The notes under the pieces were generated by a model that worked only from the letters and a program-made list of their open reading frames with translations, did no database searches and was not told where the DNA came from. Shown here piece after piece: positions 1 to 63,297 of a stretch of DNA of 64,000 nt; position 1 is the first letter of the stretch, and every line of letters begins with the position of its first letter. The translations under genes were made by a program, and so were the position numbers. The stretch lies in NCBI GenBank assembly GCA_036172245.1, contig JAYWIR010000091.1, positions 1 through 64,000 of the forward strand, written 5' to 3'. Origin of the DNA: Raillietiella orientalis (lineage: Eukaryota).

Positions 1-2394
1 AACAACTTACGTCCCATCACAATAGTGAATGCGGATGCCAAATTGATAACTAAGGTTTGGACTGAGCGCTTGGGACGAGTTGCAAACGCCTTCATCAGCC
101 CGGAACAGACGTATGCTGTTCCGGGGCGAAGCATGAAGGCGAACCTGTTACACGCTTCCACCTGGCTAGAGCTCCAACACGAAAGGGGCTTGATGAGCAC
201 CGCGAATTCCGGTGAGTCCGTCAGTCATGCGACAGATGGTCGGATGAAGGAGGGAGCACTTGCGGTCGCTGTCGACTTGCGTAAAGCATTCGACAGCGTC
301 GACCAGAATCTCCTGCTGGAGCTTTTGGAACGCTTGGGCTTCCCGTCCTCATTATTGGCCTATCTGCGCTCTAGCTGACGCGATTCGCAAATCAATGTAA
401 CTTTCAGCGGACATACTGTTCACGGCGTGCCGGTGCGACGTGGGATCCGCCATGGAGACAGCCTGAGCCCCTTGCTCTTCAGTACCTACTTTGAGTTGGT
501 ACTGAGTGCGTACAGGGGAACTCTGGCACACCTGCCGCATGAATTCGCCGGAACGCCTGCGGTTTCAGAATATGCGGACGACCTCCTGCTACTGCTCCCT
601 ATGTCAGCCCCGGCTTCGGCGGTCCAGAATTGATTCGACCAGCTGAATCGAGGAACCGGACTTACGGTGAACTGGGCGAAGTCGTCCGTGATGCCAGTTG
701 GTGCGGCGTGGGCAGGGCAGCAGGACTGGGTCCGTTTGGGGTTATCCACGGTGAGGTACTTCAAGTACCTTGCTGTGCCGCTGGGAAACTACTTCCCTGC
801 GAAAGCGTGTTCCGGCTGCCTTCAAAAAGTAGAGACGGCTATCGGCCCGTTCCGAGGCGGCAGGTTTTTCTTCCTGAACGGGCCGCGGTTTGGATCTCCT
901 TCGCGGCTCCTCTCCTCCGTTCCCTGCTTTGTGTTTGCCTCCCCCACAGAGAGTATCAAAAAGCGGACAAAGGACCTCCTCCGCATAGCTCTTTGGGGAA
1001 GAAGAGGCCCTGAGTCCCTTTGAAGGACTTGTGCGCTCCGCGTCGGGACGGCGGTCTCTGCATCCTGACCCTGGAGCGCGTGGAAATCCAGCTGCAATGG
1101 CGGACCCACGCCATCGCAGCGCAGATGTGGAGCACCGCTTGGTGCATTCCGGCCCGCCTCCTGGCCAGGCGTGTGTCCCGCTGCGAAGGACTCGCGTCGT
1201 TTCTTCTGTGCCCTGGCCGAAAGATTCGAAGATGCGGTCTACTGCTCGGCCGCATGGCAACCCTGGCAAATGGGAACAACTGGATGGTTTGTGGCCCTGC
1301 CAACTCCTCCGTTTGGCTGGAAGAGACTGCTGGCACCTGGGCCAAGCAGGACCAGAGGTACGAAGACCGGATGAACTGCCTGCGATTCGGCTTTTACGCC
1401 CTCCGAACTCTCCGTGAAATTCTTGAATTTCCACCGAGTTGCACGTGGGCGGAAGGCACACCCCTTGTTACGGCGATGCGCTTCCTCCAAAGGGCGCTTC
1501 ACGAAAGCCGGAATCCAAGGTGGCAAGTCTGCTGCCGTATCGCAGGCAGAGAGAATATGATGAGCGGCTGGACCATGGGAGAGTTGACAGATGCAACGAC
1601 CCTTAATCTCCAGCCGCGTGGATTAAAAAGATGGGGCAAGCTGCTCGGCATCCGATTGGATGACCTGAAGTGGCCCTTGGTTCTACTTGGATCCAGGATT
1701 CTTCCCCTGAAGTGGCAAGAATCGGCGCTTCTGTGGCTGCATTGGGGTCTACCCTGCAACGCGCGCCGCTTCCACTGGACGCGAGGAAGAGTAAATCCTG
1801 CGTGTGCCAGGTGAGGGGAGCGAGAGTCGCTTCCCCACCTCTTAGTTGAATGCCCTTTCGTCCAGATTCTTTGGGATCGTCTTGAAACGGCCCTTCGGAT
1901 ACCGGATGGTAGCAATGTTGGATGTGTTTTCAGTCTTGTCTTCGTGCGGGACGCCCTTAGTGCAGCCGTAGCCCTGGCAGCACTTTGCTGCATTCGTGGT
2001 ATCGTGGCGGCCTGGAGTGATGCCGAAGATGAAGACTGCGTCGTGAGGGACGTCATCGAGTATGCTTCTCGCTTCCTGCAGAGAGCTACCTGATGGCCCA
2101 ATCTGGGAAAACTGAAAATGGAACTAGAAGGCATCCTGCAAAGGATGGGCGCTCCCAGCAGTTTTCTGTGATCCCTTCCCAGCCTTCCAAACTTTTTTTT
2201 GTTGTTTGCTTTTTTCTCTTTTATTTTATTTTTGTTTTCTCCCCAATCCCCCTTCACTGCCGAGGAGAGCAACAGCGGGCTGCGTCCCGGTGTCTCGGCA
2301 ATTCCAGTATATCGTGGCCGTCAGTGGGGCCTTGTACCACGTTCTGTAGTGACCGTCGAAATGTTTTTAATAAACGTCCCGACGTATCCAGGTG
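1..2394 (+). mobile_element. Non-LTR retrotransposon 3' half (RT to 3' end), degenerate; alpha/beta chimera
   Basis: Broken ORFs carry SPEQTYAVPGRS, VDLRKAFD, GIRHGDSLSP, YADD and C-terminal CAR*GERESLPHLLVEC; T-tract 3' UTR; AATAAA 2369-2374 then hairpin and GGTG 2391-2394. Confidence 0.93.
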
Positions 2395-5010
2395 GCATCG
2401 CCGAAACCTGGAGGAAGTTGATGGAGGGGAAACTGGGCACAGAACTCTCGGACTGAGCGTTTTATTTTGTCCCAGACAGCGAGAGTCTGCAATTCGCAAC
2501 CACGCAGTAATGCGCGCAGATGTTCGCGTGCTCCTGCGAGTTGCAACCAGTCCCCCGGCAGGCGCCACGCTTCGATAGGTGGACCTCTGTCGCGGGGATG
2601 GATGTTGATTACTAGCCGAGGGTGATCGGACAGCTCCGACGCAATTGCTCCTCGAGTCCCCACCCGCGTACACAAGTGGTTATCGAGGAACACGTGGTCG
2701 ATTCTGCTTCTCGCCCCGGCTTCATCGGCCAACAAGTTGCGTGTGTGCATAGCTGCACACAACTCGTTGACCTATTGTGCTCTTATGTCGGGCGCTTCCG
2801 ACAGCAGGCGGAAGTTAAAGTCTCCCGCTCTCAGATGCGCCCGTCGCACGCCTGCTTCGGCCAACCAGTCTCGCCGCAGGGCTTCGAAGAATGCAGTGCG
2901 TTCTGCGCGCCTGTGTCTGGTGCAGGGCGCGTACACGTTCGTGACTACGAGGTCGAACGATTTGGACCACTTGAGGACAAGTTGTCCGACTCGACCTTCC
3001 TCGTCGAACTGTGTTTTGCGCACCGCATTGGCGACGGCTGGCTTCAGCAGGAAGGCCAAACCGCAGGAGTGGTTTCCTCCACCACGCCAAAGTAGCCTCC
3101 CCTTGTGAGCCTCTCGATTTCCTGGACGTCCTCTGCTCTGAGGGCATGCACCTCTTGGAGAAGTGCCAGGTCGAAAGGTCACAGGGTGTCGGCCACGCTA
3201 CGCCTCTTGCTTTCGCTACGCAGCCCGTTGACATTCCAACAGGCTATACGCAGCTGCCGGTAAGAGGCGATTCCACGCATCATACAAATGATGGTGGTGG
3301 CGTGTGTATTGCCGCTTCCTGTTCGGAAGGCGGCTGGTCGTTGTCCATCTGCGGTGGTGGCGTTTCGGCAACGACCGGAAAGTCTGCAGCCAGACTGAGG
3401 TCGATAGGAAGGACCGAACGGATGCTGTCGATAGAGGGATTCCGCGACCTCACGGACATCGCCTCCTCGCTATCCGAGCGCATCTCCTCCTCCTCAGCCT
3501 GAGGGGGAGCGACGCGCATAGGGTTGCGCGACTTCCGGCCCGCCTTCCTCTTCGGAAGGGCGACGGTAGGAGGGTTTCCGGCTTCCGCCTCGGACCCGGA
3601 AGTTTCCGGTCCCTGTACTTCCTCCGGACGTCTGACGGCCTTCTTTGCAGCCTTGGGCGGCTGCATTAAGGTGGCCGCGAGTTCCTCCGCCGCCTTCGCG
3701 AAGTTTTTCTCGTCGCTGCTGCTCGCGTGTTTGTCGCAGTATTCCTGCGGCGGTTCCGCGGCGTTCGCGACGGTTGCGGGAGTCGCGTTCGCCGATCGAC
3801 GCTCGATCGACGGAACGTGCTTGATTGTAACGCGGCATTCCTTTATGGACTCGCGCGGCGAGATTTTTGGTTTGCCGACCGCGGGTTTTTTGGGAACGCT
3901 CGCGTTCTGATTTGTATTATTATTATTTTTTTTTGGAGTTTTTGTTTTTTTTTGTGTTTCCTTTGTTTTTTTTTTTACACGACTTTCCAGTTTTCCTCGT
4001 CAGTAGTTGGCTCAGAAGTCTCCTTTTGAGGCTCCTGCTCCTTGTGCACGAGTTCTTCTGAGGTCGGCTGTTGGTCGCTCGTTTTTTGGTTTTCTGCCTT
4101 CTTCCCCTCATTTGTCGAAGGGGCTGAAGGTGTTGTGGCGGCGTTTTTCGGGCACACAGCACTAGTGTGGCCCTTCGCGCCGCAGGTTGGGCATGCGGCA
4201 TCCGGGCATTTCTTTTTAAGATGCCCGAATGTGTTGCACAGCCCACAGTATTTTTCCTTCCCCACGTACCAGAGGTCGACGAGCTCGTCGTTGACCTCCA
4301 GCTTGTGGGGAAGTTCTTTGTTTTCGCGGAGAGTTACCCGTGCGTCCACTCGCCCAATGAATGCGCCTCGATAAGTAAAGGCGTTGGGCTTCGACCACAT
4401 CGCGTATATCCTAGCGAACTTGTTGATTTCAGTGCGGATGGCTTCATCGGTCATCCGCACCGTTGTACCAGTAATGTGGATCACCATAGAGTGATCCACC
4501 GTGTGTGGGAGGAGATTCCGCCCTTCGAACGAAACGGGCGTGCAGAGCAGTTTGTGTGTAAGCGCTGCATCTTTGCAGATCAGCTCTGCGAACTGCCCGC
4601 CGGTCCGAAGCGAGAAGCAAAGAATCTCCTTGTCAGAGATTCCCATCCTAAGGATGGCGTTTCCAAATTTCCGCGTTGTAAGCGGTGAATAAAGATTTCC
4701 TACCTTGTAAAGGAGGGCTGGGTTGTAGCCCTCCTTTATGTAGGCCTGCACTTCGGCGGCCACGTCCGGCGGAGCCGCCGCGGCCACCTTGTTCCACGCC
4801 CTCGCCGGAGTGGCGGGGGCTGATTTTGTGTTGGGGCATGACCCCACCTTCATAGGTTGGGTAGACGTGGGCCTCACGTCTCCCGTCGCAGGTACTGCGG
4901 CGTCTTTATTTATTTCTGCCTTCCAACGGCCGCACTTGCAATCCACACAACACCTAGTTTTGGCTCCGCTTGCGGGAGCTGACCAAAAACGCGTGCGGCA
5001 CCCGCGCAGG
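2395..5010 (-). mobile_element. Non-LTR element 5' part: 5' UTR, ORF1, ORF2 endonuclease ending at the GFG linker motif
   Basis: ORF 3975-4946 has CGLCNTFGHLKKKC and CPTCGAKGHTSAVC knuckles; TGATG overlap 3282-3278; EN motifs NVYAP, GDFN, RIDH, SDH. Confidence 0.92.
3975..4946 (-). pseudogene. ORF1 (gag-like nucleic acid binding protein, two CCHC knuckles), N-terminal part
   Basis: 323 aa ORF with GYNPALLYKVG, VDLWYVGK and 2x CX2CX4HX4C; continues after a frameshift to stop at 3280. Confidence 0.85.
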
Positions 5011-5029
5011 TTTGCCGCATTCCCATCAG

Positions 5030-7068
5030 GTGGCCTCCCTTTGGCATCTATCCCAACGCGTCTGTTAATATTTGTTTCAGCGGCCGGTACGTGTACGGCG
5101 TGCCCGTGCGCCGCGGCATCCGGCAGGGTGACAGCCTGAGCCCCTTGCTCTTCAGCATCTACTTCGAGTTGGTGCTAAGGGCATACAGGGTAACTCTGGC
5201 ATCCCTGCCGAGCTCGTGTGCCGGCACACCTGCCGTGTCGGCCTATGCAGACGATCTTCTGCTGCTGCTTCCCGAGTCCACCCCGACGAGTGCGGTAGAG
5301 GAATTCTTCCAGTTGGTGCGCCTTGGGACTGGCCTGGAGGTGAACAGGGCGAAGTCGTCTATGGTGTATGTTGGCGCGGCGTGGGATGGATGGTCGGGCT
5401 GGATCCGTTTGGGGATCCCCACGGGCAGGTGCTTCAACTACCTAGGCGTCTTGTTAAAGGACTTCTGCGCAGCAGAAGTCTGGTTTCACCGTCTCCAAAA
5501 GGCAGCGTTGGCGATCGGTCCGTTCCAAGAAAGCAAGTTCTACTTGCAGGAACGGGCCTCGGTGTGGAACACGTTTGCGGCTTCCCTTCTTCGCCCCCAA
5601 CTTTTTGTGTGCCCGGCCCCCCATTTTATCCGAAAAAGAGCAACGGTTTTCCTAAGGACAGACTTCTTGGGCAAAGGGAGGTCCCGTGTGAGGCTCAAAG
5701 ACTTGCGCGCTCCACGTAAGGACGCAGGACTTGGGGTACTTACGCTGGAGCGTATGGAATTACAACTCCGCTTTAGGACTCTCGCCCTCGCGGCAGAATT
5801 GTGGGACACTATCTGGTGAGTTCCAGCACGCCTCTTGGCCCAACGAGCCTGCGGATTCGATGGACTGTTGTCGTTTCTGCTGGCGCGCGATCGCAGAGAA
5901 GGACAAAGCGGCTTTCTCCTGCGTCGCATGTGCATTGTGGTACGGGAGAACGCCTGAATCTCCTGCCTTTCAGGGAACTATTCTGCAAGGCTGCACGAGA
6001 CAGTGTCCACCTGGGTAAAGATCTACGTTCCGGCGGGCACAAGAAACACTTGCCTAAAAAGGCACGCACGCTGGAAACCGCAGGAGATCGTGCAGTCCCA
6101 CGTTAAACTCATGTGGGCCCTGATAAACCCCCTTGCCCCAGTGCTGCCCTTCCTGATAAACGCCAGGGACAGTAGTAAGCTGGGGAAATGGACCGTGAAC
6201 TGCACCATTGGCGGCAGGACACAACCGATAAGGGCGTGGACATCTCGGCAGCTAGCGGACGCTGCGACGCCGAGTGTCCCGCTTAACGGTATTCGACGCT
6301 GGGGCGAGCTACTCGGACTATCTCCGGAGGAGATGATGTGGCCCTCAGCGTCCTGGATCAGTGGATCCCTCCCCCTTAAATTGCAGGAATTGGCGTTGCT
6401 TGTAATACATTGGGGCTCACCCTGTAAAGCACGCCTGTATCACTCAACCCGGGGAGCTGTGGATCCCCAGTGCGACCGGTGCGGGAAAAAAGAGAACTTC
6501 CCCCACCTTCTAATTGAGTGCAGTGCCATCCGCCCTTTATGGGATCGCCTTCCGGCGATCCTGGATTTGCGCGGATGTGGCCCTAAAGACGTTCTCAGGC
6601 GCCTCTTGTGTCGTGACTCCTTGTCCCCCCCCGCTTCTGTAGCAGTCCTCTGCTGCATTCAAGGGATCGTGACGGCTTCGAGCACCATCAGAGGCAGACG
6701 TCAGCCAACTGGCGACGCCTTTCGTTTCACTCGCCTATTCGCGTGAGCTGTTTGCAAGTGGCGCCACTTAAGCGCAGAGAGGACTCAGCTTGTCCGGATC
6801 CTGAATAGGATCTAGAGCACCTATCCCCGCGCACAGTGTTCCCTTCCCTGCCCTCCCACCCCCGAAAAATTTGTTCCCTCCCACATTTCAACTTTTTGTT
6901 TGTTTTTGTTTTTTCTTTCCCAGCCCTCGCTTATTGGAAGGACCTCGCCGGCATAGAGCCGGCAGCCAGCAAGCAGTTTTGGTGTGCTGAATCCACGGGT
7001 TCTCCACTCTATAATGTATTGCGCTTTTGCTTATTTTAAATAAAGGCCCCGGCATATCCGGGTAAAAA
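5030..7068 (+). mobile_element. 5'-truncated non-LTR element (epsilon), RT C-half to 3' end
   Basis: GIRQGDSLSP, YADD, CDRCGKKENFPHLLIEC; AATAAA 7039-7044, CCCGG-CATAT-CCGGG hairpin, TAAAAA end. Confidence 0.92.
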
Positions 7069-9210: not shown

Positions 9211-11761
9211 CGTGGGCTAAGACGATCTGAAAAGATCGGTTTGCGAGTTCTGCAGCCGGTTCCCCTTGCGCATGCTTCCTTGTGGCTTCGGCGAGGGTGT
9301 GGCCAACAGCAGAGCGTTTCTGCAGACGCGCCAATTCTCTTGATGCCCGGACGTCCGATACCTTGCGGAGTACAAGGCCAAGGCCGAGCTCCAAGTCTGG
9401 CAGTCAAAAGCGGCTTGTCTGCCCGACGACCAGGGCCTGGAGTGCTTGGGCGCGGCCGAAGTTCGCCGCCTCCTAAAGCGCTATTACTCTTTGTTGCACG
9501 CTAGGGAGCCGACGGAACGCAGTCTCTCGGAGCTGCTTCCGCCGGTGGATTCCCCGGCGGTCGACGAGGAGGAACGCGCCACTCTTGACTTGCCCTTCAC
9601 GGCGGAAGAAGTGTCCTCCGCCATAGCGGGCCTCAAGAAGCGCAAGGCGCAGGTGAGGATGGTCTGCCTGCGGAGTTCTTCCAGTGCTTCGCGGCGGAAC
9701 TCATCCCCCTGGTGCTCAGGCTTTCTGCGCTGATGCGAGAGACGGGCAATGTCCCGGCCTCGTTTCGCTCAGCAAGGGTGCGTCTGTTGCCGAAAGGCGG
9801 AGACATGCGCCATTTAAGCAACTGGCGTCCCATCACCTAGGTGAATGCGGACGTCAAGTTGTTCTCCAGGCTGTGGGTCGCTCGCCTGGGCAGGATCGCT
9901 GGATCCGTGGTAAGTCCGGAGCAGTCTTACGCTGTTCCCGGGCGGTCCATGGAGGCGAACCTGTTCTTCGCGCGCACGTGGCTCGAGCTGCAACGCTGCG
10001 TGGCGCACGACAGCCAGGCAACCGCGTCTGCGGCTGCCGAGTCTAGGCGTCGCTGCATTCGGCCTGGGGAAGCGCCGGGTGCCTTGGCGGTCGCGGTCGA
10101 TCTCCGCAGAGCGTTCGATTGCGTGAATCAGGATCTTCTGCTGGAGCTCCTGGAACGCCTCGGTCTCCCGGTGCACCTCGTGGCGTATTTGCGCGCTTGC
10201 TGGCGCCACTCGCTCATTTCCATCTCTTTTAGCGGCTGCCACGTGTACGGCGTGCCGGTGCGGCGGGGCATCAGGCAGGGCGACAGCTTAAGCCCGTTGC
10301 TCTTCAGCATCTTCTTTGAGTTGGTGCTGAGGGCGTACAGGCTGACGCTGGCCAACCTGCCGAGCTCTTGTCCAGGAACGCCGTCCGTGGCGGCCTATGC
10401 TGACGACCTGCTTCTCCTCTTACCCATGACCACCCCGGCGTTAAGTCTCGAGGATTTCTTCGAGCTGATTCGCCGGGGAGCGTGCATGTGCGTAAACCGA
10501 AGCAAGAGCGTGGTCGTGCCTATTGTTCCGGCGTGGGAGGGGCAGTCCGAGTGGATCCGCCTTGGGATCCCGATCGCTTCGTCCACTCAATATCTGGGCG
10601 TTCCGCTGGGTAACATCAACCCAGTGGAAGTGTGGTCGGACTGCCCTCGGAAGGCTACGTGCGCTCTAGGCCCGTTTCAGCATGGCAGGTTCCTTCTGTC
10701 GGAGCGATCCGCGATTTGCAACACCTTCGTACCCCCCGTCTTGCGCCCCTTGTTATTTCTTTGCCCGCCCCTCTGCTCGGTCAAGCTTCAGGCGGACAGC
10801 CTGTTGAGGAACCCTCTGTGGGGACTTGCGAGGTCCAGGATCCGCATAAAAGACTTGGCTGCTCCGCGTCGGGATGCCGGATTAGGGATCCTGACGCTGG
10901 AGAGAATCGAGCTGCAGGTGCAGTTTCGGATGTTGGCCCTGTGCGCCAACTGTTGGTCCACTCCGTTGTGCGCTCCAGCGCGCCTGCTCCTGCGGCGCTG
11001 CACCGGCAGCGATGGACTGCTCTCACTGCGGCCGCATACGAAGCGCGTCACGAGATGCTTCGGTTTCCCCTTGAAACCGCTCTACCGTCTCCTGGAAGCC
11101 CAGGAATGGATGTCCTGCCGCATAACGAACTTTCAAGCCTGGCGGCAGGAACCGTTGCATGGCTGGGCAAAGCACCAAGATGTTTCCCTCCTGGAACTTC
11201 GTTGCGCTCACCTATCCCCGTATTGCACGTTGGACGAGGTGTGCAACAGCCGGGAGAAGTGGACCCGCCTGGCCGTCACCCCCTTCGAAGACGCACTGTC
11301 AGCCCTCAGGGCAAGAGATGACAGTTGCGAACCGGCGAGATGGGAGGTCGCCGGCACCATTGCAGGAGCAACCCGACCTATTGGCGGCTGGAGGACTTGC
11401 GAGCTGGCAGACGCCGCCACGCCTCGCCTCATCTCGAAGGGACTTCTTCGGTGGAGCGAACACTTGAGTGTGCCCCCCGGAGAACTTGTGGTCCCTCCCT
11501 CCTGTTTGAACACTTTGGTGTACCCCCTTTCGTGGAAGCAGAACGTCATGATGCTGGTGCATTGGGGCTTTCACTGCAACCAGCGGACGAACCGTATTTC
11601 TGGGGGAGTTGTCTCCCCAAACTTTAAGCGGTGCGGGGATGTGGAAACGCTCCCGCACCTGCTCCTGGAATGCAGTGCCCTTCTAGGACTCTGGCGGAGG
11701 CTGGCCTCAGCTCTCCTGCACCGAGGGGACACCTCGAGGGATTTGATGCGCCCGGGTGATA
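9211..11761 (+). mobile_element. ORF2 linker-RT-CCHC (gamma-like), joined directly to the terminal CCGGGTGATA motif
   Basis: 642 aa ORF 9841-11769 with all RT motifs (VDLRRAFD, QGDSLSP, YADD); terminal motif at 11751-11761 with no 3' UTR. Confidence 0.9.
9841..11750 (+). pseudogene. Reverse transcriptase plus C-terminal domain of ORF2; longest uninterrupted RT frame in the window
   Basis: Open for 642 codons; in-frame stop immediately upstream (9838-9840) and truncated C-terminus. Confidence 0.88.
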
Positions 11762-13210: not shown

Positions 13211-13900
13211 TTTTCACCCAGATTTCGCCGGGGCGTTTATTGTAAAATAAACTTTTACAAAGACGTGCGGTGGCTGGACCATTGCTCCAGCCACGCACGA
13301 AGAAACACAGAACCTGCCGGATCTCCGGATCGCAGACCGGTATGGTCCACCACGGCAGCAGGGGTAAGGGGGAAAAACAAAAAACGAAACAAAAAAGAAA
13401 AAAAAAGTTGGGAGGGTAAGGGAAGGGATCACAGTTGCTGGTGGGGCCGTTGCATCCTTTGCAGGATGCCGGCAAGCTCCTTCTGTATTCCTGGATCTAG
13501 GTGGGGCCATCGGGACGCCCTCCTCAGGAACTGGGAGGCTGGCTGGATGGCACCCTGGTCGCGTTGTCCTCCCGTAGCCTTGCTCCAAGCGGTGACGATC
13601 CCACGTAGGCAGCAAAAAGCGCTAACAAAGCCGCTGGCCGAAGGGCGTCGGCAACGAAGAGGGCTTCCAGTGCGTCCCTGGGGTTGCCGCAGGGGATTCC
13701 GATGGCCGCGGCAAAGCGAAAACAAAGGGGCCGAAGGGCAACACAATCCACTAGCAGGTGAGGGAGAGAATCCCGTTCCCCACACCTGGCGCAATTGGGG
13801 TCCACCGCTCCCCAGGTCCAGTGGTGACGGCGGGCGTTGCAGGAAAGTCCCCAGTGCTGCAACAGGAGAGCCGACTCCTGCCATTTTAAGGGAAAAGCGG
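13211..13900 (-). mobile_element. Alpha copy 1, 3' end
   Basis: WQESALLLQHWG...CARCGERDSLPHLLVDC; ends AATAAACGCCCCGGCGAAATCTGGGTGAAAA; closely similar to 56840-57529. Confidence 0.9.
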
Positions 13901-13904
13901 AAGT

Positions 13905-14677
13905 GAATTGGCAGACGCTGCCACACCTCGCATTCCTGCAAATGGGGTTTCTCCGGTGGAGTGAGCTCTTCGGGGTGCCCACCGATGAACTTGTGGTCCC
14001 TTCTGCGTGTTTGGACGCGACTCTCTTCCCCCTTTGGTGGAAGCAGGACGCTTTTCTGCTGGTGCATTGGGGTTTGTACTGCAACCAGCGGGCGCACCTG
14101 ATTTCCGGGGGAGTTGCGTCCCCGAACTGTGCCAAATGCAAAGCGGTGGAATCGCTTTCGCATTTGCTGTTTGAGTGCGGTGCCCTCCAGGAGCTGTGGC
14201 AGCGGCTGTCTTCAGCGCTCCTGCACCCTGGACACACCGCACTGGATTGGATGCGCCGCTTCTACACGCGTGGCGGACTTTCTCTTGGAGCGGTCGTCGC
14301 AATCATCTGCTGCGTCCGCGCCATTGTGAGGGCCCGCCACGTATTGCAGATGCGAGCAGTCCCAACATCGGTCCCCGACACCGCAGCCTGCAACCTGCAA
14401 ATGGCTGCCGGCTGGCCACATCTTGGAGCAGAATTGAGGATGGAGATCGGCGGCATTCACCGCCGGTTCTGAGAATAGGAACGGTTACACGGTATACCCC
14501 TGTCCCCGCCCCCCCTCCCAGTTTATTTATTTATTGTCCCACCCCCTCCCGTTTCGAACTCTCAGTGTGTCCGGACTGCGTTCCGGGGAATCTACTCCCC
14601 ATTTTCTGTTCCCCTTGCCTGGGAACACAGTTCTCAGTTGATTATTTAATAAACGTCCCGGCGCAACCGGGTAGTAA
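13905..14677 (+). mobile_element. Gamma-like 3' fragment replacing the interior of alpha copy 1
   Basis: HWGLYCN...CAKCKAVESLSHLLFEC, stop 14472; AATAAA 14648-14653 and CCCGG-CGCAA-CCGGG. Confidence 0.87.
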
Positions 14678-24487: not shown

Positions 24488-24489
24488 TT

Positions 24490-30450: not shown

Positions 30451-30454
30451 GACG

Positions 30455-45414: not shown

Positions 45415-45420
45415 TCTTCA

Positions 45421-51915: not shown

Positions 51916-51919
51916 TCGG

Positions 51920-51937
51920 CTAGAGCGGACGTGTTTC
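51920..51937 (+). promoter_or_regulatory. Conserved 5'-terminal motif (candidate internal promoter or initiator), representative copy
   Basis: GAGCGGACGTGTTT variants at element starts near 4983-5000(-), 9190(-), 15852(-), 25833(-), 26191, 27393(-), 45425, 47904. Confidence 0.6.
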
Positions 51938-53728
51938 CTCGGTGCTCCTCGTGCCGGGAAGCGTCCCTAGGTGTAGGCTTCGAGTGTGGTGGTGGTCGAT
52001 CAGGCAGCAATGCCTGACACGACCACCAGTGCGTGTCAGGGGGCGGTGGCAACGTCGCCTCCTGAAGAAATGTTGTGCCAGGTGGCGGCGGCAACGTCGC
52101 CTATAGAGAATGTGGAGTGCCAGGAGGCGGCGGCAACGTCGCCTTCAGTGGCGAAGGAGGAGGAAGCGTTCGCCCTCACAAAACCGGTCCCCGTTGCAGC
52201 GCGTGCTTGGAGCGCCGTCGTGTCGGCGCCATCGCCTGCAGCCGCGGCGGAATTATCTGCCTATGTGGAAGAGGGGTATAACCCATCACTATTCTACAAG
52301 GTAGGCAATTTGTATTCTGCTGAGATTGCTTGCGCCTTTTCGAAGGGGATGCGCGCTCTCGATGTTAAAGAGAAGGAGCTCTGCGCTATGACCGTTCCTA
52401 GCGGAGGGCAGTACGTAGAGGTGATCTGCAAACATGCAGATCTGGCACAACGTCTGCTTGAAACCCCCGTAATAATGAAGACACTAAGGTTCCTTCCCGT
52501 TACGGCGGACCACAGTATGGTGTTCCACCTTCTAGGAGTTACCGCGCGGATGCAGAAAGAACAGTTACGCGCCGCGTTGGGAAAAGAAGGCACGGTCCAT
52601 GCAGTATGGACCAAGACTAGTCCTTTCGAGGACTATACCACAGTTCAGTGCGGCCTCACGGCTGCCCGTGTAACCGTTTGGGAGAACTGTACCCTTCCCC
52701 ACAAACTGGTGGTCGGCGGAGAAAGCGTCGACCTCTGGTACGTGAGGAAGCCGAAATACTGTGGCTTCTGCAACACATCGCGACACCTCAAAAGGAGGTG
52801 CCCCAACGTACAGTGCCTGGTATGCGGGACAATGGGTCACACGAAGGAAGTGTGTCCACAATCCGCTGTGCGCGTGGTTACCGCGAGGAACCTAAGAAAA
52901 CGCGCGCGGCTGCTACGGAAACAACTGGCGGCGAAGGCTGCCGCTCAAGATGTGCCACCCACTCTCGTGGTCCAGGTCTCAGCCGACACCCCGGCAACGA
53001 ATGCCGAAAAGATCGACAAAAGCGGTCAGGAGTCGAAATGGCAAGAGGTCACAGCGAAAAAGAAAAAAAAGTCGAAGAATGAACGACGAATTGAAAAAAA
53101 AGTTCGCCTACCAAAATAAAAAACAGCAGGTTAGCGAGAATTTAAAAGAATGCAGCGTCGTAGTGGAACTTGTCCCCGCCGAACGCCGCAAGGTAGAAAT
53201 CGCTGCTACCTACGAGCAACCCACTGTTGAAAATGTCAACAGCGTGGGGAGCGAACCCACGGAAGCGTCCGTCATCGAGGCCGTGATCGATGACGCCGCC
53301 TTCTAGCGTGCGGCGGAGGATCTGGCTGCATAGTTGCAGCCAGACCCCTCGAAGGCTGGCAAAAAGGCAGTGAGGCGTCCGGCCTCAACCGAGGAGTCGG
53401 TAACTTCCGACCCCGAAGCGAAGACCGGAAACCAAGTTTCTATTTTGGCGGCACCCCGCTGGAAGGCTCGAAGGAAGGACAGGAAACCGGGGAAAGCCCC
53501 TCTCCAGGTCGAAGGCGTGGAGATGACTTCCCACTGCGAGGGTGCCATTAGCGTGGGAGAATCCCGGGAATCGTCACCCGAGAGACCACCACGCACAGAC
53601 ACGGAGGAGATGGAGGGGGCTGAAGCCGGAAAGGTACTCAAGGCGCCTGAGGAGACTGGAACCCTAATGGTCAAATCACCCGCCTCCGAAGAGGCAGGTT
53701 CCCCCACACCGTCGTCTTCCCGGCAGTA

Positions 53729-55333
53729 ATGCCGGCAATCTCCTCCCACCGTCGTCTGCGCATCGCCGTTTGGAACGTGAACGGCATGACAGACGCCGGA
53801 AGGAGGCGAGACATGGCCGCCATCCTAGGATCGTTCGACCTTGCGCTGCTACTGGAGATCCATGTGATCTCTTCAGAACCAGCGCAGGAGATCAAACGCA
53901 TCTCAGGAGGGCAGCTGTTGTATGGGTGTGGAAGATCGAGAAGTTGTGGTGTCGCCTACCTGCTTCGGCCCGCCATCGAGGCGGCTGCCCGTGGACTTCA
54001 GTTCGACGATCACGGTCGTGTCGGCCAGCTGACTCTCAGCTGGACCGACTTGATCGACCTGATCGTTACAAACGTTTACGTCCCGAGCGGAGCGGACCTG
54101 ACGAACAGGAGGGCCAGGAAAGAATTTTTCCTTGCCCTCCATTGCAACTGGTTGACCGAGGCAGGCGTGCGGAATGCCCATGTGGTTGCAGGCGATTTTA
54201 ACGTTCGTATGAACCCGGATGGGCCTAATCACGAGCGTGACCTGGTCAACGAGGTGTGCGCGGCGGTGCACACTTGTAATTTGTTAGCCAGTGTACCAGG
54301 GATGGACGACAACATCGATCACGTGTTCCTTGACGAGCACCTGTGCACTCGTGTGGGCGGGCGCTGCAAGTTGCCGTGCGAGTTGTCCGACCATCGACCA
54401 ATCGTGATTGAAATCCATCCGCGCAACAGGGGCCCCCCCTCGTCAGCGTGGCGTTTGCCAGAAGACTGGCTGAAGCTCCCGGACGCGACGGAACATCTCC
54501 GCACGTTCATACGGAGCTTTAAGATGCAGGCACTTCAGGATTGGGACTGCTTTAAACGGTCGGTCCAGGAGTTCTGCGACCAGTTCCCTCTGCACCCCCT
54601 AGCTGTGGGATTTGGGGACGAAGTACGTAACAAACGAGCCTATCTGCAGGCTCGCCGTTACGCCAGGACCCTTGACATCCGCAGGCTAACAGGATACAAA
54701 GCGGGAGCCAAGAGGCAAGCCTGGCAGTCAGGATCGGCCTGCTTGCTGGACGATCAGGGCCAGGAGCATACGGCACCCGTTCAGATCCGCGGTCTGCTGC
54801 GGAGTTTTTACTCCTCCCTGTACGCAAGAACTCCTCCCGAGCGGGATTTCTTACGAATCCTGCTTCCGGAAGGCGCTTCTGCGATCGGGGAAGAAAAGAA
54901 AAAGTCCCTCGACGAGTGTTTCACGATGGGGGAGATCATCTCGGCCATCGGAAGGCTCAAGAGGCGAAAGGCTCCAGAAGAGGACGGCCTGTCCGCGGAG
55001 TTTTATCAAACTTCCGCGGATGAGCTAACCCCCCTGGTACATCAACTCACCTTACTGATACGCAAGACAGGTGACTTTCCCGCCTCGTTTCGTTCGGCAA
55101 AGATGCGGCTTCTCTCTTTGGGAGGAGATCTGAGGAGCATGAACAACTGGCGTTTCATCACAATAGTGAATGCGGATGCCAAGTTGATAGCTAAGGTTTG
55201 GGCTGAGCGCTTGAAACGGGTTGCAAACGCCTACATCAGCCCGGAACAGACGTATGCTGTTCCGGGGCGAAGCATGAAGGCGAACCTGTTCCACGCTTCC
55301 ACCTGGCTAGAGCTCCAACACGAAAGGGCTTGA
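53729..55333 (+). pseudogene. ORF2 N-terminal half: APE endonuclease, linker, RT start
   Basis: 534 aa: VWNVNG, LLE, NVYVP, GDFN, IDH, SDH, then NADAKL, SPEQTYAVPGRS; frameshift at ~55328. Confidence 0.9.
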
Positions 55334-57529
55334 TGCGCACCGGGAATTCCGGTGAGTCCGTCAGTCATGCGACGGATGGTCGGATGGGAGAGGGAGCACT
55401 TGCGTTCGCTGTCGACTTGGGTAAAGCATTCGACAGCGTCGACCAGAATCTCCTGCTGGAGCTTTTGGAACGCTTAGGCTTCTCGGCCTCATTATTGGCC
55501 TATCTGCGCTCTAGCTGGCGCGATGCACAAATCAATGTTACTTTCAGCGGGCATACTATTCACGGTGTGCCGGTGCTACGTGGGATCCGGCAAGAAGACA
55601 GCCTGAGCCCCTTGCTGTTCAGTACCTACTTTGAGTTGGTACTGAAAGCGTACAGGTAAACTCTGGCGCACCTGCCGCATGAATGCGCCGGAACGCCTGC
55701 AATTTCAGCATATGCAGACGACCTCCTGCTACTGCTCCCTATTTCCACTCCAACTTCGGCGGTTTAGAAGTTCTTCGACCTGCTGAATCAAGGAACCGGA
55801 CTTACGGTGAACTGGGCGAAGTCGTCCGTGATGCCAGTTGGTGCGGCGTGGGCAGGGAAGCAAGACTGTCTCCGTTTGGGGATGCCCACGGTGACGTACT
55901 TCAAGTACCTTGGTGTGCGTTGGGGGACTACTCCCCTGCGGAAGCGTTGTCCGGTTGCCTTCAAAAAGTAGAGACGGCTATCGGCCCGTTCCGAGGCGGC
56001 TCGTTTTTCCTGCCTGAACGGGCCGCGGTTTGGAAGATGTTCGCTGCTCCTCTCCTCCGTTGTCTGCTTTTTGTTTGCCCCCCAACAGAGAGGATCAAAA
56101 AGCGGACGAAGGACCTTCTCCGTATCGCGCCTTCGGGCAACGGGAGGGCCCGTGTCCGCTTGAAGGACTTGTGCGCTCCGCGTCGGAACGGTGGTCTCGG
56201 CCTCCTGACATTGGAGCGGCTGGAGCTGTAGCTCCAGTTCCGGATTTTAACACTTGTGCCGGAGTTGTGGTGCACCTGTTGGTGCGTCCCTGCACGTCTC
56301 CACCTTCAGCAAGCCACCGGCAATACGGGACTTACGTTGTTTCTGGCACTCCATCGAAGCCGCATCAACCGAATTGGGCTTGATCTACGGAGGTTGGCTG
56401 CGCTGGCAAGCAAAAATCAAGGATGGATCACCTGTCTCCACGCAAACGGTAGTGCCTGGTTGCAGGAAACCGTTCGCACGTGGGGACAGTTGGGCATGCA
56501 ACCCTCCCATCAGGAACGAAGGATCCTGTTTGGGTGTTACAGAAGTTGCACGCTCAGAGAGATCCTGAAGGATCCTAAGAAGAGAGCGTGGTCAGCAAGA
56601 ACCCCCCTCGCTGCTGCGCTGGACTCCCTAGTGGAACATCAGGACAGCGATGTTGCGGCGAAGTGGGAGGTTACAATAAAAATCTCCGGGAATGAGAAGA
56701 AGCAGAGAGAGTGGAAGATGGGCCAGCTAACTGATGCTGCGACCCCGAGTACGCCTTCTAATGGACTTCTATGCTGGAGAGCTCTGCTGGATGTTCCGAT
56801 TGAACATCTGAAGTGGCCCCCGATTCTTATGAACACTTCCTTCCTCCCCTTAAAATAGCAAGAGTCGGCATTCCTGTTGCAGCACTGGGGACTCCCCTGC
56901 AACGCCCGTCGACACCACTGGACCTTTGGAGCGTTGGATCCCAATTGTGTGAGGTGCGGGGAACGGGTTTTCCTCCCCCACCTCCTAGTGGATTGTGTTG
57001 CCCTTCGACCCCTTTGGTTCGGCTTTGCCGCGGCCATCGGTGTCCCTTGCAGCAACCCCAGGGACGCACTAAAAGCCTTTTTCGTTGTCGACACCCTCCG
57101 GCCAGCATCCTCGATAGAAGCCTTGTTCTGCCTTCGTGGCTTCGTCGCCGCCTGGAGCACGGTGACGGGAGGACCTAGCGATCAGGAAGCCATTTAGTGC
57201 GCCTCCGAATTCCTGAGGAGGGCGTCGCGATCATTCCACCTGGATGTTCACAACAAACAAGAGGTTGCCAGCATCCTGAGAGGGATGATGCGGCCCCAGC
57301 AGCATCAGTGATCCCTTCCCGTTCCCTCCCACCCTTTGTTTTCTTTTCTTTAGTTTTTTTGTTTTTGCCCTTTCCCCTGCTGCCTTGGTTGACAGTACCG
57401 GTCAATAAACCGGTGAATTGGCAGGCGCCGTGGTTCTTAGCTTCTGGCTGGAGGATTGCCACAGCCATAAATAATTTGTTTACAAAGTTTATTTTCTTAA
57501 TAAACGACCCGGAGAAATCTGGGTGAAAA

Positions 57530-57749
57530 TCGAACGCCTTGTGGAGATCGACCGCGACCGCCAAGGCACCTGGCGTACCCTCCTGCCGTCGGAGGCTGTT
57601 CTTCTTGCCTGCGGCAGTGAGTTTCTCAGCAGCCTGGCTTCGCTGCGCCACAACTTCCTGAAGCTGCATCCATGTACGCGCGAATAGGATGTTCGCCTCC
57701 ATGGATCGTCCCGGAACCGCGTTGGTTTGTTCCGGGCTCACCACAGATT
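57530..57749 (-). mobile_element. RT fragment ending at HKAFD (right flank of alpha copy 2)
   Basis: SPEQTNAVPGRSMEAN...ALAVAVDLHKAFD. Confidence 0.9.
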
Positions 57750-59815
57750 CCGCGTGTACGGTATTCCCGTGTTTTGGGGCATCCGACAGGGCGACAGCTT
57801 AAGCCCGTTGCTTTTCAGCATCTTCTCTAAGCTGGTGCTAAGAGCATACAGGCTGACGCTGACTCACTTGCGAAGCTTCTGCCCGGGAACGCCTGACGTG
57901 GCCGCCTACGCTGATGACCTGCTTCTTCTGTTCCCCATGTCCAACCCGTCGTCCAGTGTCGAGGATTTTTTCGACCTGATTCGTCGGGGAGCGGGCGTGA
58001 GCGTGAACAGAGAGAAGAGTGTGGTCGTTCCTGTGAGTACGTCGTTGGAGGGGCAGTCCGACTGGATGCGCCTGGGGATCCCCACGGGCGGGTACTTTAA
58101 GTACCTTGGCGTTCCGTTGAGCGCTTTCGGAGCAGCCGGAACGTGAGCGGACTGTCTTCAGAAAGCAGAGTTGGCCATCAGCCCGTTCTTTAACGGCAAG
58201 TTTACCTTGCAGGAACGGGCGACTATTTGGAACACCTTTGTGGCCCCCCTCCTCCGTCCCCTGTTTTTTGTTTTGGACCCCCCCTTTGCAGCGAAACAGC
58301 GGGCTAAACGCCTTCTCAGGAACGCACTCTGGGGTCCGGCGAGATCCAGGATCCACCTTGAAAATTTGTTAGTTCCGCTTCGGGATGCTGGTTTGGGTAT
58401 CCTGACAATGGAGCGAATCGGACTGCAGGTGCAGTTCCGACTGCTGGCACTGTGTGCCCAGCTATGGACGTCCCCCCTGTGTGTTCCAGCCCGCATTTTC
58501 CTGCGGAGATGCGCAGGCAGCGAAAGATTTCTCTCGCTTTTGCCGGGCACTCAATACAGGAAGCGGGGTTTGGGGTTTCCATTGCGGCATTTGACCGCTC
58601 TTCTGGAAGCACACTCGTGGATCTCCTGCCGCCCAATGGACTTTGAAGCTTGGCGGCAGGAGTCTATTGAATCCTGGATGACGTTCAAAGGAATGCGCTC
58701 TGAAGTTCTTCGCCCCCTGCGCCAATTCTTTCCGCGATCCTTGGAAGAAGTACTGCAGGACGAGGTGAAGTTTTCTACCGTGGCTGCCACGCCGGTTTCC
58801 GCAGCGCTGTCTGCCCTCAGGGCAAGAAACGACAGTTACCAACTGGCGAGGTGGGAGGTTTCCTGCACGATAGCGGGAAAACCAAAATCCTTGGCGCCTG
58901 GAAGACGAGTGAGTTGGCGGACGCCGCCACTCCTCGTGTTATTGCAAAGGGACTCCTCCGGTGGGCAGAAGAACTTGCTGTCACCCCCGTAGAACTTGTA
59001 GTCCCACCACAGTGTATTGACTGTTCGCTGCTCTTCCTTGTTTGTAAACAAGCCGTGCTGCTTTTCGTTCACTGGGGTTTTCAGTGCAACGAGCGTTGGC
59101 ATCGTGACTCCGGGGGACTTGCGTCTGGGAACTGCGCTCGGTGCGGATCGACGGAGTCGATTCCGTACCTACTTCTGAACTGCGGTGTCCTACAAGGACT
59201 GTGGCGTAGGCTCGCAACAGCACTAATGCATCCCGTGGACACCGCAAGAGACTTGCTGCGACGATTCTTCACGCCGAGAGGGCTGTCACTAAGCGCAAGG
59301 ATTGCAACCATCGGTTGCATACGCGCGATAGTTTCCGTCCGCCAGGCGTTGGTAATCAACGGACAGCACAAAGAGGTAATCAGCAAAGCATCCTTTTACA
59401 TGAGAGCATCCGCTAGATGGCCTTATTTGACAGAGGAGACAAAAAGGAATCTCGCCGCAATACACCGCCGGTCTACACACGCTCAGCCGCGGCCAACCCG
59501 GTGATCATTGCCCTACCCTCCATACACTAATTTTGTATTTTCTTTTTACCAGCGTCCCCATAGGCTCCGGAACATTTCAGGTGCTCATCGTATAAATCCC
59601 CGTGAGTACGGAGCCTATCCAAAATACCGTTACCCTTCCCTCCAGTTTTTGATTTTTGTTTGTTTCTCCTCATTCCTCCCACGCTGCGAACGGTTTGTTT
59701 ACCAGGCCTGCGTGCCGGTAATTTTTCTATGTTTTCTGTCCTTCTGTTGGTTGGGGACTTTGTCCCTGACCAGTTTATTATTATTAATAAACGCTCCGGC
59801 GTGACCTGGTGATAA
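57750..59815 (+). mobile_element. Gamma 3' part: RT C-half to 3' end
   Basis: QGDSLSP, YADD, HWGFQCN, CARCG; AATAAA 59786-59791, CCGGCGTGACCTGGTGATAA. Confidence 0.92.
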
Positions 59816-62800
59816 ATTTCAATCTCTGCCTGCTAACGGGTGAGCCGGCAACACATGAGAGTGTGATGAACGAGTTGTGCTCCGCCATGCCTGCTCGCAA
59901 CTTGTTCGCGGGAGAGGAGGAAATGGTCCACAGCATCGATCACGTCTTCCTCAACGCTGACCTGTGCTCACGGGCCGGCAAACGGGGCAAGATTGCGTAG
60001 ACGCTGTCGGACCATTACCGGATAATTTTCGAGATGCGGCCGCACGACAAGGGAGCGTCATCAAGGGCGTGGCGTCTGTCGGGGGACTGGATGCGACTCT
60101 CAGGTGCGAAGGAACATCTTTGCAAATTTCTTAGAGGCGTCACGCTCAAGAGTTTGCAGGACTGGGTCCATATTAAGGAATCAGTACGGGAGTTCTGCGA
60201 GAAGTTCCCCCTGGACCGCGTCTTCCTAGGATTTGGAGAAGGGTCTCGCAATCATCGGTCCTATTTACAGACCCGTCGGTACGAGAGAACCCCTAATGTC
60301 CGTCGCCTGGAGGAACAGAGCGCTGGGGCCTAACGCCAAGACCGGCAATCCGGGTCGGCCAGCTTCCTGGATGACCAGGGCAGGGAACGGTCTTCCCCGG
60401 CGGCGGTACGGCATTTCGTGCGGGGATATTATTCCTCCCCTTACTCCAGGGCGCCCCCGGAGCGAGACGTTTCTCGGCATTTGCTTCCGGATGGTGCCCT
60501 CGTAAAAGTAGAGGAGGAAATGTCAAGCCTCGACGAGCCTTTTTCCACCGGCGAAAGTCTCGCCGGTGTCAAATAGCTCAAAAGTCGTTAAGCTCCAGGG
60601 AAGGACGGCCTGCTCTCGGAGTTCCTTCAGAGCTTTGTGGAAGAGCTGGCACCCAGGCTGTTTAAGTTGACAAGGCTTATCCGAGACGAAGACAATGTTC
60701 CCGCCTCGTTTTGGTCAGCCAGAGTGACGCTCCTTCCAAAAGAAGGAGACCTGAGAAAACTCACCAGTTGGCGTCCGAACACAATTGTGAATGCGCACGC
60801 CAAGCTGATCGCCAGGCTGTGGGCTATGCGTTGGGGACAGGTAGCCAATACCATAATTATCCCGGAGCAGACTTACCCTGTTCTTTGGCGAAGTATGGAG
60901 GTCAACGTTTTCTTCGCGGTCACATGGTTGCATGTGCAGAGGTCTCATAATGAAGGACATGGGAAAATCGACAATTCCACTTTGGGGCCGCCAGTCGGGC
61001 AGGGAAGCAACTTTCTGGCTGGGAAAGGATTCCTAGCGATCGCGGTCGATCTGCATAAAGCGTTTGACTGCTTGGACCAGGATCTCCTCTTGGAGATCCT
61101 GGGGCGCATGGGCTTCCCACCCTCTCTGACAACTTATTTGCGCTCCTGCTAGCGCAGTGCGATGATAACCGTTGTTTTCAGAAGTCAGCAGGTGTATGGC
61201 GTGCCGGTGCGGAGGGGCATAAGGCAGGGTGACAGCCTCAGTCCCCTGCACTTTAACACCTACTTTGATTTGGTGCTGAGAGAGTATAGGGTGCCAACGG
61301 AGCCTTGCCTTTTGTTTTCCCCACCCCCGTAGAATGCAAAAAGAGGACTGAGGACCATCTGCCCTCTGGGGCAGCGGGAAGCCCCGTGTGCCTCTGAAGG
61401 ATTTATGCGCTCCGCGCCGGAATGGCGGTGTTAGCCTCCTGACGTTGCAGCGCTTGGAGATTCAGCTGCGATGGCGCACCCTCGCTATCGCAGCGAAGAC
61501 TTGGTCCACCCCTTTGAGCGTTCCGGCTCGCCTTCTCGCCAGCCGTGTGTCCCGGTGCGAAGAGCTCGCGTGTTTTCTTCTGTGCCTTGCCCGGAAGATC
61601 CGAAGATGCGGCCTACAGCTCCACCGCATTGCATCCTATGCGAAGGAGAACAGCTGGATGGTTTGCAGCCCCGCCAACTGCTCTGCATGACTGGAAAAGA
61701 ATATCGGCACCTAAGCTGTCGTAAACCAGATGAGCCACGAATCGTGGTATCGTCTCCGATGCATCCCCTACGCCCGTTGCAAGCAGCGGAATCTCCTGGA
61801 TAGCCCCGATAGAAGCATGTGGGCGGAGACGACCTGCCCAGCTACGGCGATGCCCTTTCTGAGGAGGGCGCTTAACAGCAGCTGAAAGCTGGGGAATCCC
61901 GCTGCGGAATCTCCTGGAGAGTCCAGCAAGATGCACGTGGGCAAAGACGACCTGTCTAGCTACGGCGCTGCCCTTCCTGAAGAGGGCACTTCACAGCAGC
62001 CGGACGCCAAGGTGGCAAGTCTCCTGCTGCATCGAGGGACGCGAAAAGTTGATCAGCGGCTGGACAACAATAGAACTGGCAGACGCCACGACCCCGAGCG
62101 TCCAGCCGCGAGGACTAAGAAGATGGGGCGAGCTGCTGGCCATCCCTATGGATGTGCTGAAGTGGCCCCCGCTTCTTCAGGAATCCAGGATCCTGCCTCT
62201 TAAGTGGAAAGAGTCGGCGTTGCTGTTGTTGCATTGGGGTTTACCCTGCAACGCACGCCGCTCTCACTGGACAAGAGGAGTTGTGGATCCTGCGTGTGTC
62301 AGGTGCGGAGAGCGGGAATCGCTCTCCCACCTTATTATGGACTGTGCTGCCCTTCGTCCCCTTTGGAAACGGTTTGGGACGATCCTCGGTCTCCCAACGG
62401 GCAGTTCCCCTAGAGACGTTCTTCGGCCCCTCTTCGTGAAAGACGCCCTGCAGCCAGCCGCAGCCCTTGCAGCCTTGTGCTGCGTCCGAGGCATCGTGGC
62501 GGCATGGAGCGACACCAACAAGGAAGGAGTGGTTCAACACGCGAGGGATGTCATCCCATATTCCCAATGCTTCTTGCGAAGAGCTGCCGGATGGCCCCAA
62601 CTGGGGAATATGAGGACTCACCTCGAGGGCTTCGTTCGACGGATGGGCCCTCTCCACAGCGAACAGTGATCCCTTCCCTGCCCTCCAACTTCTTTTTGTT
62701 TGTTTCTTTTTATTTTACTTTTTGTCTTATCCCCATCCCCCTTCGCTGTCGGGGAGTGCCACGCCGGGCTGCGTCCCGGTGTCCCGACAGGTCCTGTGTT

Positions 62801-62874
62801 TACGGCCGTGGTGGGGCCTAGTACCACGCATGTAAAGTTGATTAATAAACGCCCCGGGCGTACCCGGGTGATAA
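59816..62874 (+). mobile_element. Beta, right part: EN from (D)FN to 3' end, with internal deletion near 61290
   Basis: Starts ATTTCAAT; SIDH, GFGEG, DLHKAFD, QGDSLSP, CVRCGERESLSHLIMDC; AATAAA 62844-62849, CCCGGG-CGTA-CCCGGGTGATAA. Confidence 0.9.
62844..62874 (+). terminator. Conserved 3'-terminal AATAAA plus hairpin, representative copy
   Basis: Same layout at about 13 element ends in the window. Confidence 0.7.
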
Positions 62875-63297
62875 CGCCGAATTCAAGGGGCAGGCGATCC
62901 AGGGGCAACTGCTCACAGAACTCGCGGACGGATTCCTTAAAAAGATCTCAGTCCTGGAGATTCCGGAGCGTGACGCCTTTCAGGTATTCGCGAAGGTGTT
63001 CCTTCGCACCTGAGAGTCGCGTCCAGTCCCCCGGCAGACGCCAATCCCTGGATGGCGGTAATTAGTCGCGAGGCCGCTTCTCGAAAATTAGCCGGGAATA
63101 GTCCAACAACGTCGACACAACCCTCCCCCGTTTGCCGACGCGTGAACACAGGTCAGCGTCCAGGAAGACGTGGTCGATGCTGCGGACCATTCCTCTCTCA
63201 CCCGCGAACAAGTTGCGCGCACGCATCGTGGCGCACAACCCGTTCATCGCGTTCACATGTGTTTCCGGCTCACCTGTTAGCAGGCGGACATTGAAAT
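62875..63297 (-). mobile_element. EN/linker fragment bounded by the GDFN site and the GFG site
   Basis: FNVRLL...SIDH...PLDRLPLEFG; both ends coincide with recurrent insertion sites. Confidence 0.9.

Follow-up and report, generated by a model that had tools for sequence, protein, structure and literature searches.

A LINE lineage that may prefer a conserved GFG motif of related LINEs as its insertion site, in a 64-kb nest from Raillietiella orientalis

We have analyzed 64,000 nucleotides of Raillietiella orientalis DNA (contig JAYWIR010000091.1, positions 1 to 64,000), a single stretch that we call the window and within which all insertion events were counted. The window is mostly a nest of diverged copies of one divergent L1-like family of long interspersed nuclear elements (LINEs), and this report concerns one lineage of that family, beta, which is inserted antisense at the GFG motif between the endonuclease (EN) and reverse transcriptase (RT) of other copies. 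The stop-to-stop open reading frames (ORFs) of the family encode an AP-type EN and an RT according to Pfam: the ORF at 53651-55330 (560 aa) matched PF03372 (E 1.3e-9) and also PF00078, and the ORF at 9841-11769 matched PF00078 (E 1.3e-14). ORF2 thus has EN followed by RT, as in the AP-endonuclease LINEs (non-LTR, or non-long-terminal-repeat, retrotransposons), and a second conserved ORF family with weak CCHC knuckles, lying upstream of ORF2, is taken as the putative ORF1. All LINE copies were mapped by tblastn with two rulers, namely ruler A (ORF 53651-55330), in which GFG is A320-322, and ruler B (ORF 9841-11766, 642 aa), which overlaps the end of A.

The ends of these copies are characteristic. 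The terminal motif AATAAACGCCCCGGCG..CCGGGTG, with about 4 A-rich nt after it, was found at twelve 3' ends that could be aligned, and a thirteenth, more diverged LINE 3' end lies near 49766. The tails after ..GGTG are AAAA, ATAA, GTAA, GCAA and GCAT, about 20 nt past AATAAA, and a poly(A) or simple-repeat tail is absent from all LINE 3' ends in the window. Full-length 5' ends number six, all with GAGCGGACGTGTTT in common, against 13 3' ends, indicating frequent 5' truncation, and three complete insertions carry target-site duplications of 11, 11 and 8 bp. For a possible C-terminal cysteine-rich domain of the zf-RVT type, 61863-62669 scored 21.2 bits against PF13966, below the cutoff of 27.5 bits. 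When 11 slices, some of them mis-cut, were examined for a 3' terminal stem-loop, RNAalifold gave no consensus pairs.

Homologues of the family are distant. The best named protein homologues of the ORF2 pieces are plant L1-like proteins with 23-28% identity, and the protein search with these pieces returned distant relatives only, at best 22% identity over 90% of the query or 35% over 29%. The ORF at the host 1 junction had no match in the protein search, and the EN-RT linker (A181-340) had only one weak match among 1.84 billion representatives. A single-protein query of metagenome contigs found six loci, 29-56% identical across no more than 80 residues near the KAFD motif of the RT, which we rejected as members of the family. 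A scan of genome contigs for the 3'-end pattern gave 0 matches.

Two 3' junctions of beta inserts lie at GFG (Table 1). The sequence-only reading had placed them at GGTG+GCAT+CGCCGAAACC (2391-2408) and GGTG+ATAA+CGCCGAATTC (62867-62884), in the same register in two hosts, and both were found exactly so. Each reads GGTG, 4 nt and CGCCGAA from its first base (2391 or 62867). Seen from the minus strand, the flanking sequences run ...FPLHQLPPGFGD and ...LPLDRLPLEFGV, or ...SVREFCAQFPLHQLPPGFGD and ...SVREFCEQLPLDRLPLEFGV, and the ORF2 homology ends one base past the GFG codons. At both junctions the host is antisense to the insert and broken one base beyond the FPLxxLPxGFG motif. The same reading had noted a 5' end close to a third host that resumes at GFGEGTRN. 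We find that a minus-strand copy starts exactly at GFGEGTRN (45414) and that a full-length LINE 5' end runs rightwards from 45415, with GAGCGAACGTG, common to the six full-length 5' ends, at 45425.

Judged from sequence, the 5' end at 45415 and the 3' end at 62874 are those of one element, Y, which was split by later nested insertions. At the GDFN codons of Y (..MTGDFN, 47902) another LINE is inserted, and ATTTCAAT stands on both sides of it as a duplication (47895-47902 and 59816-59823). The positions 45414/45415 and 62874/62875 are then the two ends of one insertion, and therefore the three junctions represent two GFG events. The flanks of Y overlap by 10 nt, GGGTTTGGGG at the 5' junction and GAATTCGGCG at the 3' junction, and what looked like a third host is most likely the second host continued on the far side of Y, the overlap resembling a target-site duplication. 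Four to five tandem copies of a 57-bp unit occupy 46657-46941, in the ORF1/spacer region of Y.

Table 1. Beta, alpha and delta insertions, their hosts and an intact GFG site in the window
Feature	Positions	Strand	Description
Beta insert 1	1..2398	+	RT to 3' UTR; 5' side cut by window edge; GGTG 2391-2394, tail GCAT 2395-2398
Host 1	2399..5050	-	ORF1 within 3978-5174; ORF2 EN + linker from 3304 down to 2399; ends ..GGT TTC GGC G
Intact GFG site	9284..9292	+	GGC TTC GGC; TTCGGCG heptamer as in both hit hosts; uninterrupted
Alpha insertion 1	13211..15876	-	Antisense at RT KAFD codons of + host (11795-13210, 15877-17970); duplication AAAGCGTTCGA / AAGGCGTTCGA
Host 3	42484..45414	-	From GFG (GGGTTTGGGG, 45414-45405) via RT to 3' end; left flank of beta insert 2
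Beta insert 2 (Y), 5' part	45415..47902	+	Full-length 5' end; ORF1 remnant 45709-46062; EN up to GDFN 47420-47902
Delta element X	47903..59815	+	Sense at GDFN codons of Y; full-length 5' end 47903; 3' end GGTG+ATAA 59808-59815; duplication ATTTCAAT (8 bp)
Alpha insertion 2	51913..57529	+	Full-length; ORF1 51977-53116; ORF2 from 53651; own GFG intact 54608-54616; antisense at KAFD of minus host; duplication AAGGCGTTCGA / AAAGTTTTCGA
Beta insert 2 (Y), 3' part	59816..62874	+	EN from FN; intact GFG 60229-60237; RT; 3' UTR; GGTG 62867-62870, tail ATAA 62871-62874
Host 2	62875..63297	-	EN-linker piece, DFN to one base past (E)FG (..GAA TTC GGC G); right flank of beta insert 2
Delta-type X'	63298..64000	-	3' end GGTG+ATAA joined in sense to host 2 at DFN; 94% identical to X 59115-59815

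Contigs of a related sequencing run, X1 (8% of sampled words), were aligned to the window at a likeness of at least 80%. Its joint of 60238 to 62876, on opposite strands and at depth 16.3, was not counted as a further GFG junction: position 62872 has depth 15.4 in 4 contigs, so the joint contig lacks the insert tail, and it more probably represents a copy without interruption, its linker resembling that of host 2 and its RT that of Y. A further X1 contig, at depth 2.14, leads from 62865 to 45431 via 35 letters, as if two beta elements stood head to tail about 11 nt apart; it was too weak and was left unused.

The two beta inserts have homologous 3' untranslated regions (UTRs), as had been proposed, and they are sister tips in the tree of the 12 aligned 3' ends (support 0.895, 69% identity). 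What did not hold is beta as a 3' UTR type and family of its own: all 12 aligned 3' ends share the terminal motif, and beta is a lineage within one family. In the same tree the two alpha inserts, which lie at KAFD, are also sister tips (support 1.0).

The shared register could have been inherited if one ancestral composite of beta in its host had been copied as DNA, by segmental duplication or gene conversion, and had then diverged. In favor of such copying, 1430-2768 is colinear with 61922-63244 across the junction (68.7%), and homogenization at the DNA level is clear in the window, where one part of the inverted arms 59115-60236 and 62877-64000 shows 94% identity and the other about 80%. On the other hand, hosts 1 and 2 are identical at 261 of 424 nt (61.6%), which is as far apart as unrelated lineages are in the same region (56-62%), and the 4-nt tails of the two inserts are unlike (GCAT and ATAA). 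Dead copies would moreover drift neutrally, yet the differences fall mostly at third codon positions. Between the hosts, differences by codon position are 42/43/78, and the ratio of nonsynonymous to synonymous differences (pN/pS) is 0.51 (bootstrap 0.38-0.64, 138 codons); between the inserts it is 0.44 (bootstrap 0.37-0.51, 488 codons). The upper bounds are thus 0.64 and 0.51, and the Jukes-Cantor (JC) dN/dS values are 0.31 for the hosts and 0.30 for the inserts. Since interrupted copies are not under selection, most of the divergence of hosts and inserts is older than the insertions. Considering that the hosts are only 62% identical and that both hosts and inserts diverged under purifying selection, we conclude that the two events are independent and not one duplicated composite, and we regard copying of a composite as improbable.

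Recurrence at a fixed place extends to the sister lineages. Alpha has made two complete antisense insertions at KAFD with 10-11 bp duplications (sites 13200-13219, 15877-15887, 51902-51915 and 57521-57540), TCGAACGC adjoins the 3' junction in both, and the ORF1s of the two inserts have a pN/pS of 0.33. A related copy near 44590 has an uninterrupted KAFD site. The delta element X lies in sense at the GDFN codons of Y and is itself broken by a minus-strand LINE (about 49766-57753) that carries alpha insertion 2. In the inverted repeat 59115-60236 / 62877-64000, X and X' are 94% identical and the adjoining host parts about 80%, with the change falling within about 35 nt of the junction; the X' junction could reflect a second, independent insertion into this site, or gene conversion over a tract whose end lies close to the junction. 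At 49766 and 57751-57754, X jumps across the nested minus-strand LINE from the end of a 634-aa ORF1-like frame to RT position B134, and about 2 kb (EN and early RT) is missing from it. A related X1 contig joins the same two points via about 80 nt, so the gap in X may be older than the nested insertion.

Could such pairs arise by chance? In a simulation, 10 LINE-hosted 3' junctions were distributed randomly over a 5.6-kb element, with two orientations allowed, and a coincidence was counted within 1 nt. The probability of at least one coincident pair was 0.012 and that of at least two was 6e-5, or 0.0055 when only a tenth of the element could be hit. The GFG site has two events only, a number that leaves some room for chance, but the window holds at least two coincident pairs, GFG and KAFD, and each coincident pair is also a sister pair in the tree. 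Accordingly, we hardly credit pure coincidence of two random insertions.

A family-wide hot spot deserves more weight, although we still consider it unlikely. According to this explanation, all lineages prefer to insert into LINE DNA within the nest, where a few local stretches or structures, around TTCG in the GFG and KAFD codons, are nicked more often than others. The tetramer does occur in both targets, KAFD (GCGTTCGA^) and GFG (TTCGGCG^), and 7 of the 13 3' junctions lie in antisense LINE copies (5 places) and 3 of 13 in sense copies (2 places). With only two events per site, the match of lineage and site would then be an accident of small numbers. Against this, each recurrent site has been entered only by two sister tips, all other lineages in the window lying elsewhere, and most occurrences of TTCG are not hit; the tetramer has no strand asymmetry, its frequency on the sense strand equaling that of its complement (112 vs 119). 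An antisense rule among LINE-hosted junctions is a trend only: 9 are antisense (seven 3' junctions and two with a 5' end only) and 3 sense, which is not significant (binomial estimate about 0.15).

Two full-length 5' ends abut antisense LINE hosts with their matching 3' junctions outside the window. One (9205-9230) lies at about A296, 24 codons before GFG, and the other (26180-26200) at about A73-78 of the EN.

The junctions might also have come from rearrangement of inverted LINE copies, whether by fold-back or inverted duplication, twin priming or microhomology joining. Event 2 does sit within an a-b-c-b'-a' inverted structure, and 2395-2398 can be read as host codons (GAT GC). At both junctions, however, the element 3' end is complete and carries its tail, and insert 2 has a full-length 5' end on its opposite side. 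Its flanks share a 10-nt overlap, like the duplications of the sister lineage, and host 1 and insert 1 belong to different lineages. In our reading of the junction sequences, no microhomology was seen between the 3' tail and the target. We therefore consider rearrangement very improbable. As for twin priming in particular, in L1 it produces a single insertion in which the 5' part is inverted; the inverted and direct segments come from one RNA and are non-overlapping. The junctions described here resemble it in that LINE sequence is joined in opposite orientations. We rejected such an inversion: the antisense partner is another lineage (62% identity), host 1 being 60% identical to the insert 2 linker, insert 2 has a GFG region of its own, and the junction carries a complete 3' end.

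From these results, we consider it slightly more likely than not that the beta lineage truly prefers the GFG site, that is, that it makes lineage-specific and sequence-specific target-primed insertions into conserved codons of other LINEs, and we put the probability of this reading at roughly 0.55. Within the window, 2/2 beta 3' ends lie at GFG in the same orientation and register, and one matching 5' junction accompanies them. The proposal of a second site-specific family at GFG thus stands in part, through the shared register, the antisense orientation, the two diverged hosts, the clade that the inserts form and the 10-nt overlap; it falls short in its count of hosts, since 45414 and 62875 flank one insert and two events remain in place of three hosts.

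Several observations weigh against this preference. There are only two independent GFG events (n=2), in one 64-kb window, and no copy of the family was found outside the window in protein and contig searches, so that the sample was not enlarged. Site occupancy was taken from the tblastn map, with the distant family at 20.8-23.3 kb excluded and, for GDFN, also the copy at 11795, which has a gap there. GFG is spanned by 6 copies and interrupted in 2, KAFD by 8 and interrupted in 2, and GDFN by 6 and interrupted in 2; GFG is therefore intact in 4 of 6 copies. The heptamer TTCGGCG occurs 13 times in the window and 2 of the 13 are hit, and one intact GFG site, at 9284..9292, has the heptamer of both hit hosts. 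We thus rejected TTCGGCG as the whole target. Other lineages do not reuse sites: the two members of the pair c4/c10 differ in their targets, and a separate target was hit by each of c3, c12, c2 and c5. These targets are antisense EN at A119, the antisense ORF2 C-terminus, the antisense ORF1 end, sense sequence upstream of ORF2, and non-LINE DNA. The specificity of the EN, finally, is a property that we infer.

The flanks of event 2 also speak against it. Their 10-nt duplication matches at 6 of 10 positions only (GGGTTTGGGG vs GAATTCGGCG), and the copy at 11795-17969 shares 84-86% identity with host 3 but 68% with host 2. Host 2 is 81% identical to insert Y itself; this likeness drops from 85% near DFN to 73% near GFG, and the differences between Y and host 2 are even by codon position (23/28/31). 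Because the two flanks have different closest relatives, the reading requires either gene conversion at a later time or a host that was recombinant. We read the mismatch of hosts 2 and 3 as later homogenization between inverted repeats, and a recombinant or different host is also possible.

If beta does prefer GFG, it would integrate through target-primed reverse transcription, at one set position within other LINE copies. At the junctions, the host sense strand is joined, one base past GFG (5'-GGN TTC GGC G^), to the complement of the element 3' end (..CCGGGTG plus the 4-nt A-rich tail), so that the insert is antisense to its host. This polarity is the one expected when a nick in the host sense strand primes reverse transcription. 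At the other end of the insert the host resumes 10-11 nt upstream (10 nt, at GGGTTTGGGG, in beta event 2), as after a staggered break. The site would presumably be chosen by the AP-type EN of the lineage, by the 3' end of its RNA, or by both, as in known sequence-specific AP-endonuclease LINEs. The predicted nick of the beta EN is 5'-GGNTTCGGCG^, and candidate target sequences for the beta and alpha EN domains include GGNTTCGGCG and AAGGCGTTCGAC.

The RNA 3' end may contribute in a further way. In beta event 2 the duplicated stretches are mismatched at 4 of 10 positions, and in alpha event 2 at 3 of 11; in both, the copy beside the 3' end is the one common to the other event of the lineage (TTCGGCG for beta, GCGTTCGA for alpha). 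Judging from four junctions, the bases beside the 3' junction (CGCCGAA in beta, TCGAACGC in alpha) may have been copied from a 3' extension of the element RNA and not from the host, and such RNA-carried bases would account for the pairing of a canonical 3'-side copy of the duplication with a non-canonical 5'-side copy.

Sister lineages appear to use other invariant codons, KAFD of the RT in antisense and GDFN of the EN in sense. Presumably these motifs could not change without disabling the host element, and LINE copies, being many and dispensable, would offer a durable and harmless landing place. Repeated use of such sites would build LINE-in-LINE nests. More tentatively, and with less confidence than we have in the GFG preference itself, we suggest that a guild of sister lineages has partitioned the invariant codons of its own family (GDFN, GFG and KAFD) as homing sites, a form of LINE-on-LINE hyperparasitism in which the junction bases are possibly carried by RNA.

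The remainder of the window holds two other features. A complete U4 small nuclear RNA (snRNA)-like sequence (18986-19124) stands directly upstream of a distant LINE (19160-24460), which has a weak-RRM ORF1, an EN at 20812-21411 and an RT at 21963-22952 and which, lying beside U4, may be an snRNA-associated element. A low-GC block (31000-42500, 37-48%) contains 3.7-kb inverted arms (33769-37453 / 38793-42479) that are 86% identical, and its ORFs have no Pfam match; one LINE 3' end (42484) adjoins it.

The known targets of sequence-specific LINEs comprise rRNA, snRNA and tRNA genes, microsatellites, telomeres and one DNA transposon, and Tx1L targets the DNA transposon Tx1D. According to the available part of one source, AP-type EN lineages with target specificity exist in the Tx1 and R1 clades, and transposons are among the known targets of sequence-specific LINEs (PMC4640811). 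As far as these elements are described there, the lineages in the window resemble them in having an AP-type EN and an RT and, if the preference for GFG is true, in entering multicopy, dispensable targets at one fixed sequence and in one orientation. They would differ in that the target is a conserved coding motif of LINEs of the same family, entered antisense, and in that sister lineages appear to split the motifs among them.

Nests of LINEs are also known. In the portions of the sources at hand, the L1-type LINEs Zepp of Coccomyxa/Chlorella and ZeppL of Chlamydomonas form LINE-only clusters by nested insertion into existing copies, with a GC content above the rest of the genome (PMC3446292, PMC8226300), and these clusters are tandem arrays of mostly 3' ends (PMC8226300). 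Compared by these partial descriptions only, the window is alike in being a LINE-only nest that grew by insertion into existing copies. It does not match the tandem 3'-end arrays described there, having mixed orientations, six full-length 5' ends and insertions in coding regions. A fixed codon-level target or an antisense rule does not appear in the accessible parts of the descriptions of Zepp and ZeppL (PMC3446292, PMC8226300, PMC9940879 and the CENH3 preprint). Celine of poplar is described, in the part of the source available, as a centromere-targeting LINE that lies mostly in other retrotransposons, with about 7% of copies nested in themselves (PMC11288735). It is similar, on that description, in landing mostly in other retrotransposons. 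Its targeting is regional, to centromeric chromatin, each copy having a unique duplication and the copies no common target sequence in the part of the account available (PMC11288735).

Our literature search found no report of LINE lineages that home to conserved coding motifs of related LINEs, which is not proof of absence. If such homing is true, related lineages that each target a different indispensable motif of their relatives would represent a safe-haven strategy of a new kind, in which transposable elements are clearly in conflict with one another. The family would also provide several naturally diverged AP-type ENs with distinct short targets, useful for understanding how this fold gains specificity, and would supply a sequence-level mechanism for the growth of LINE-only nests of the Zepp type.

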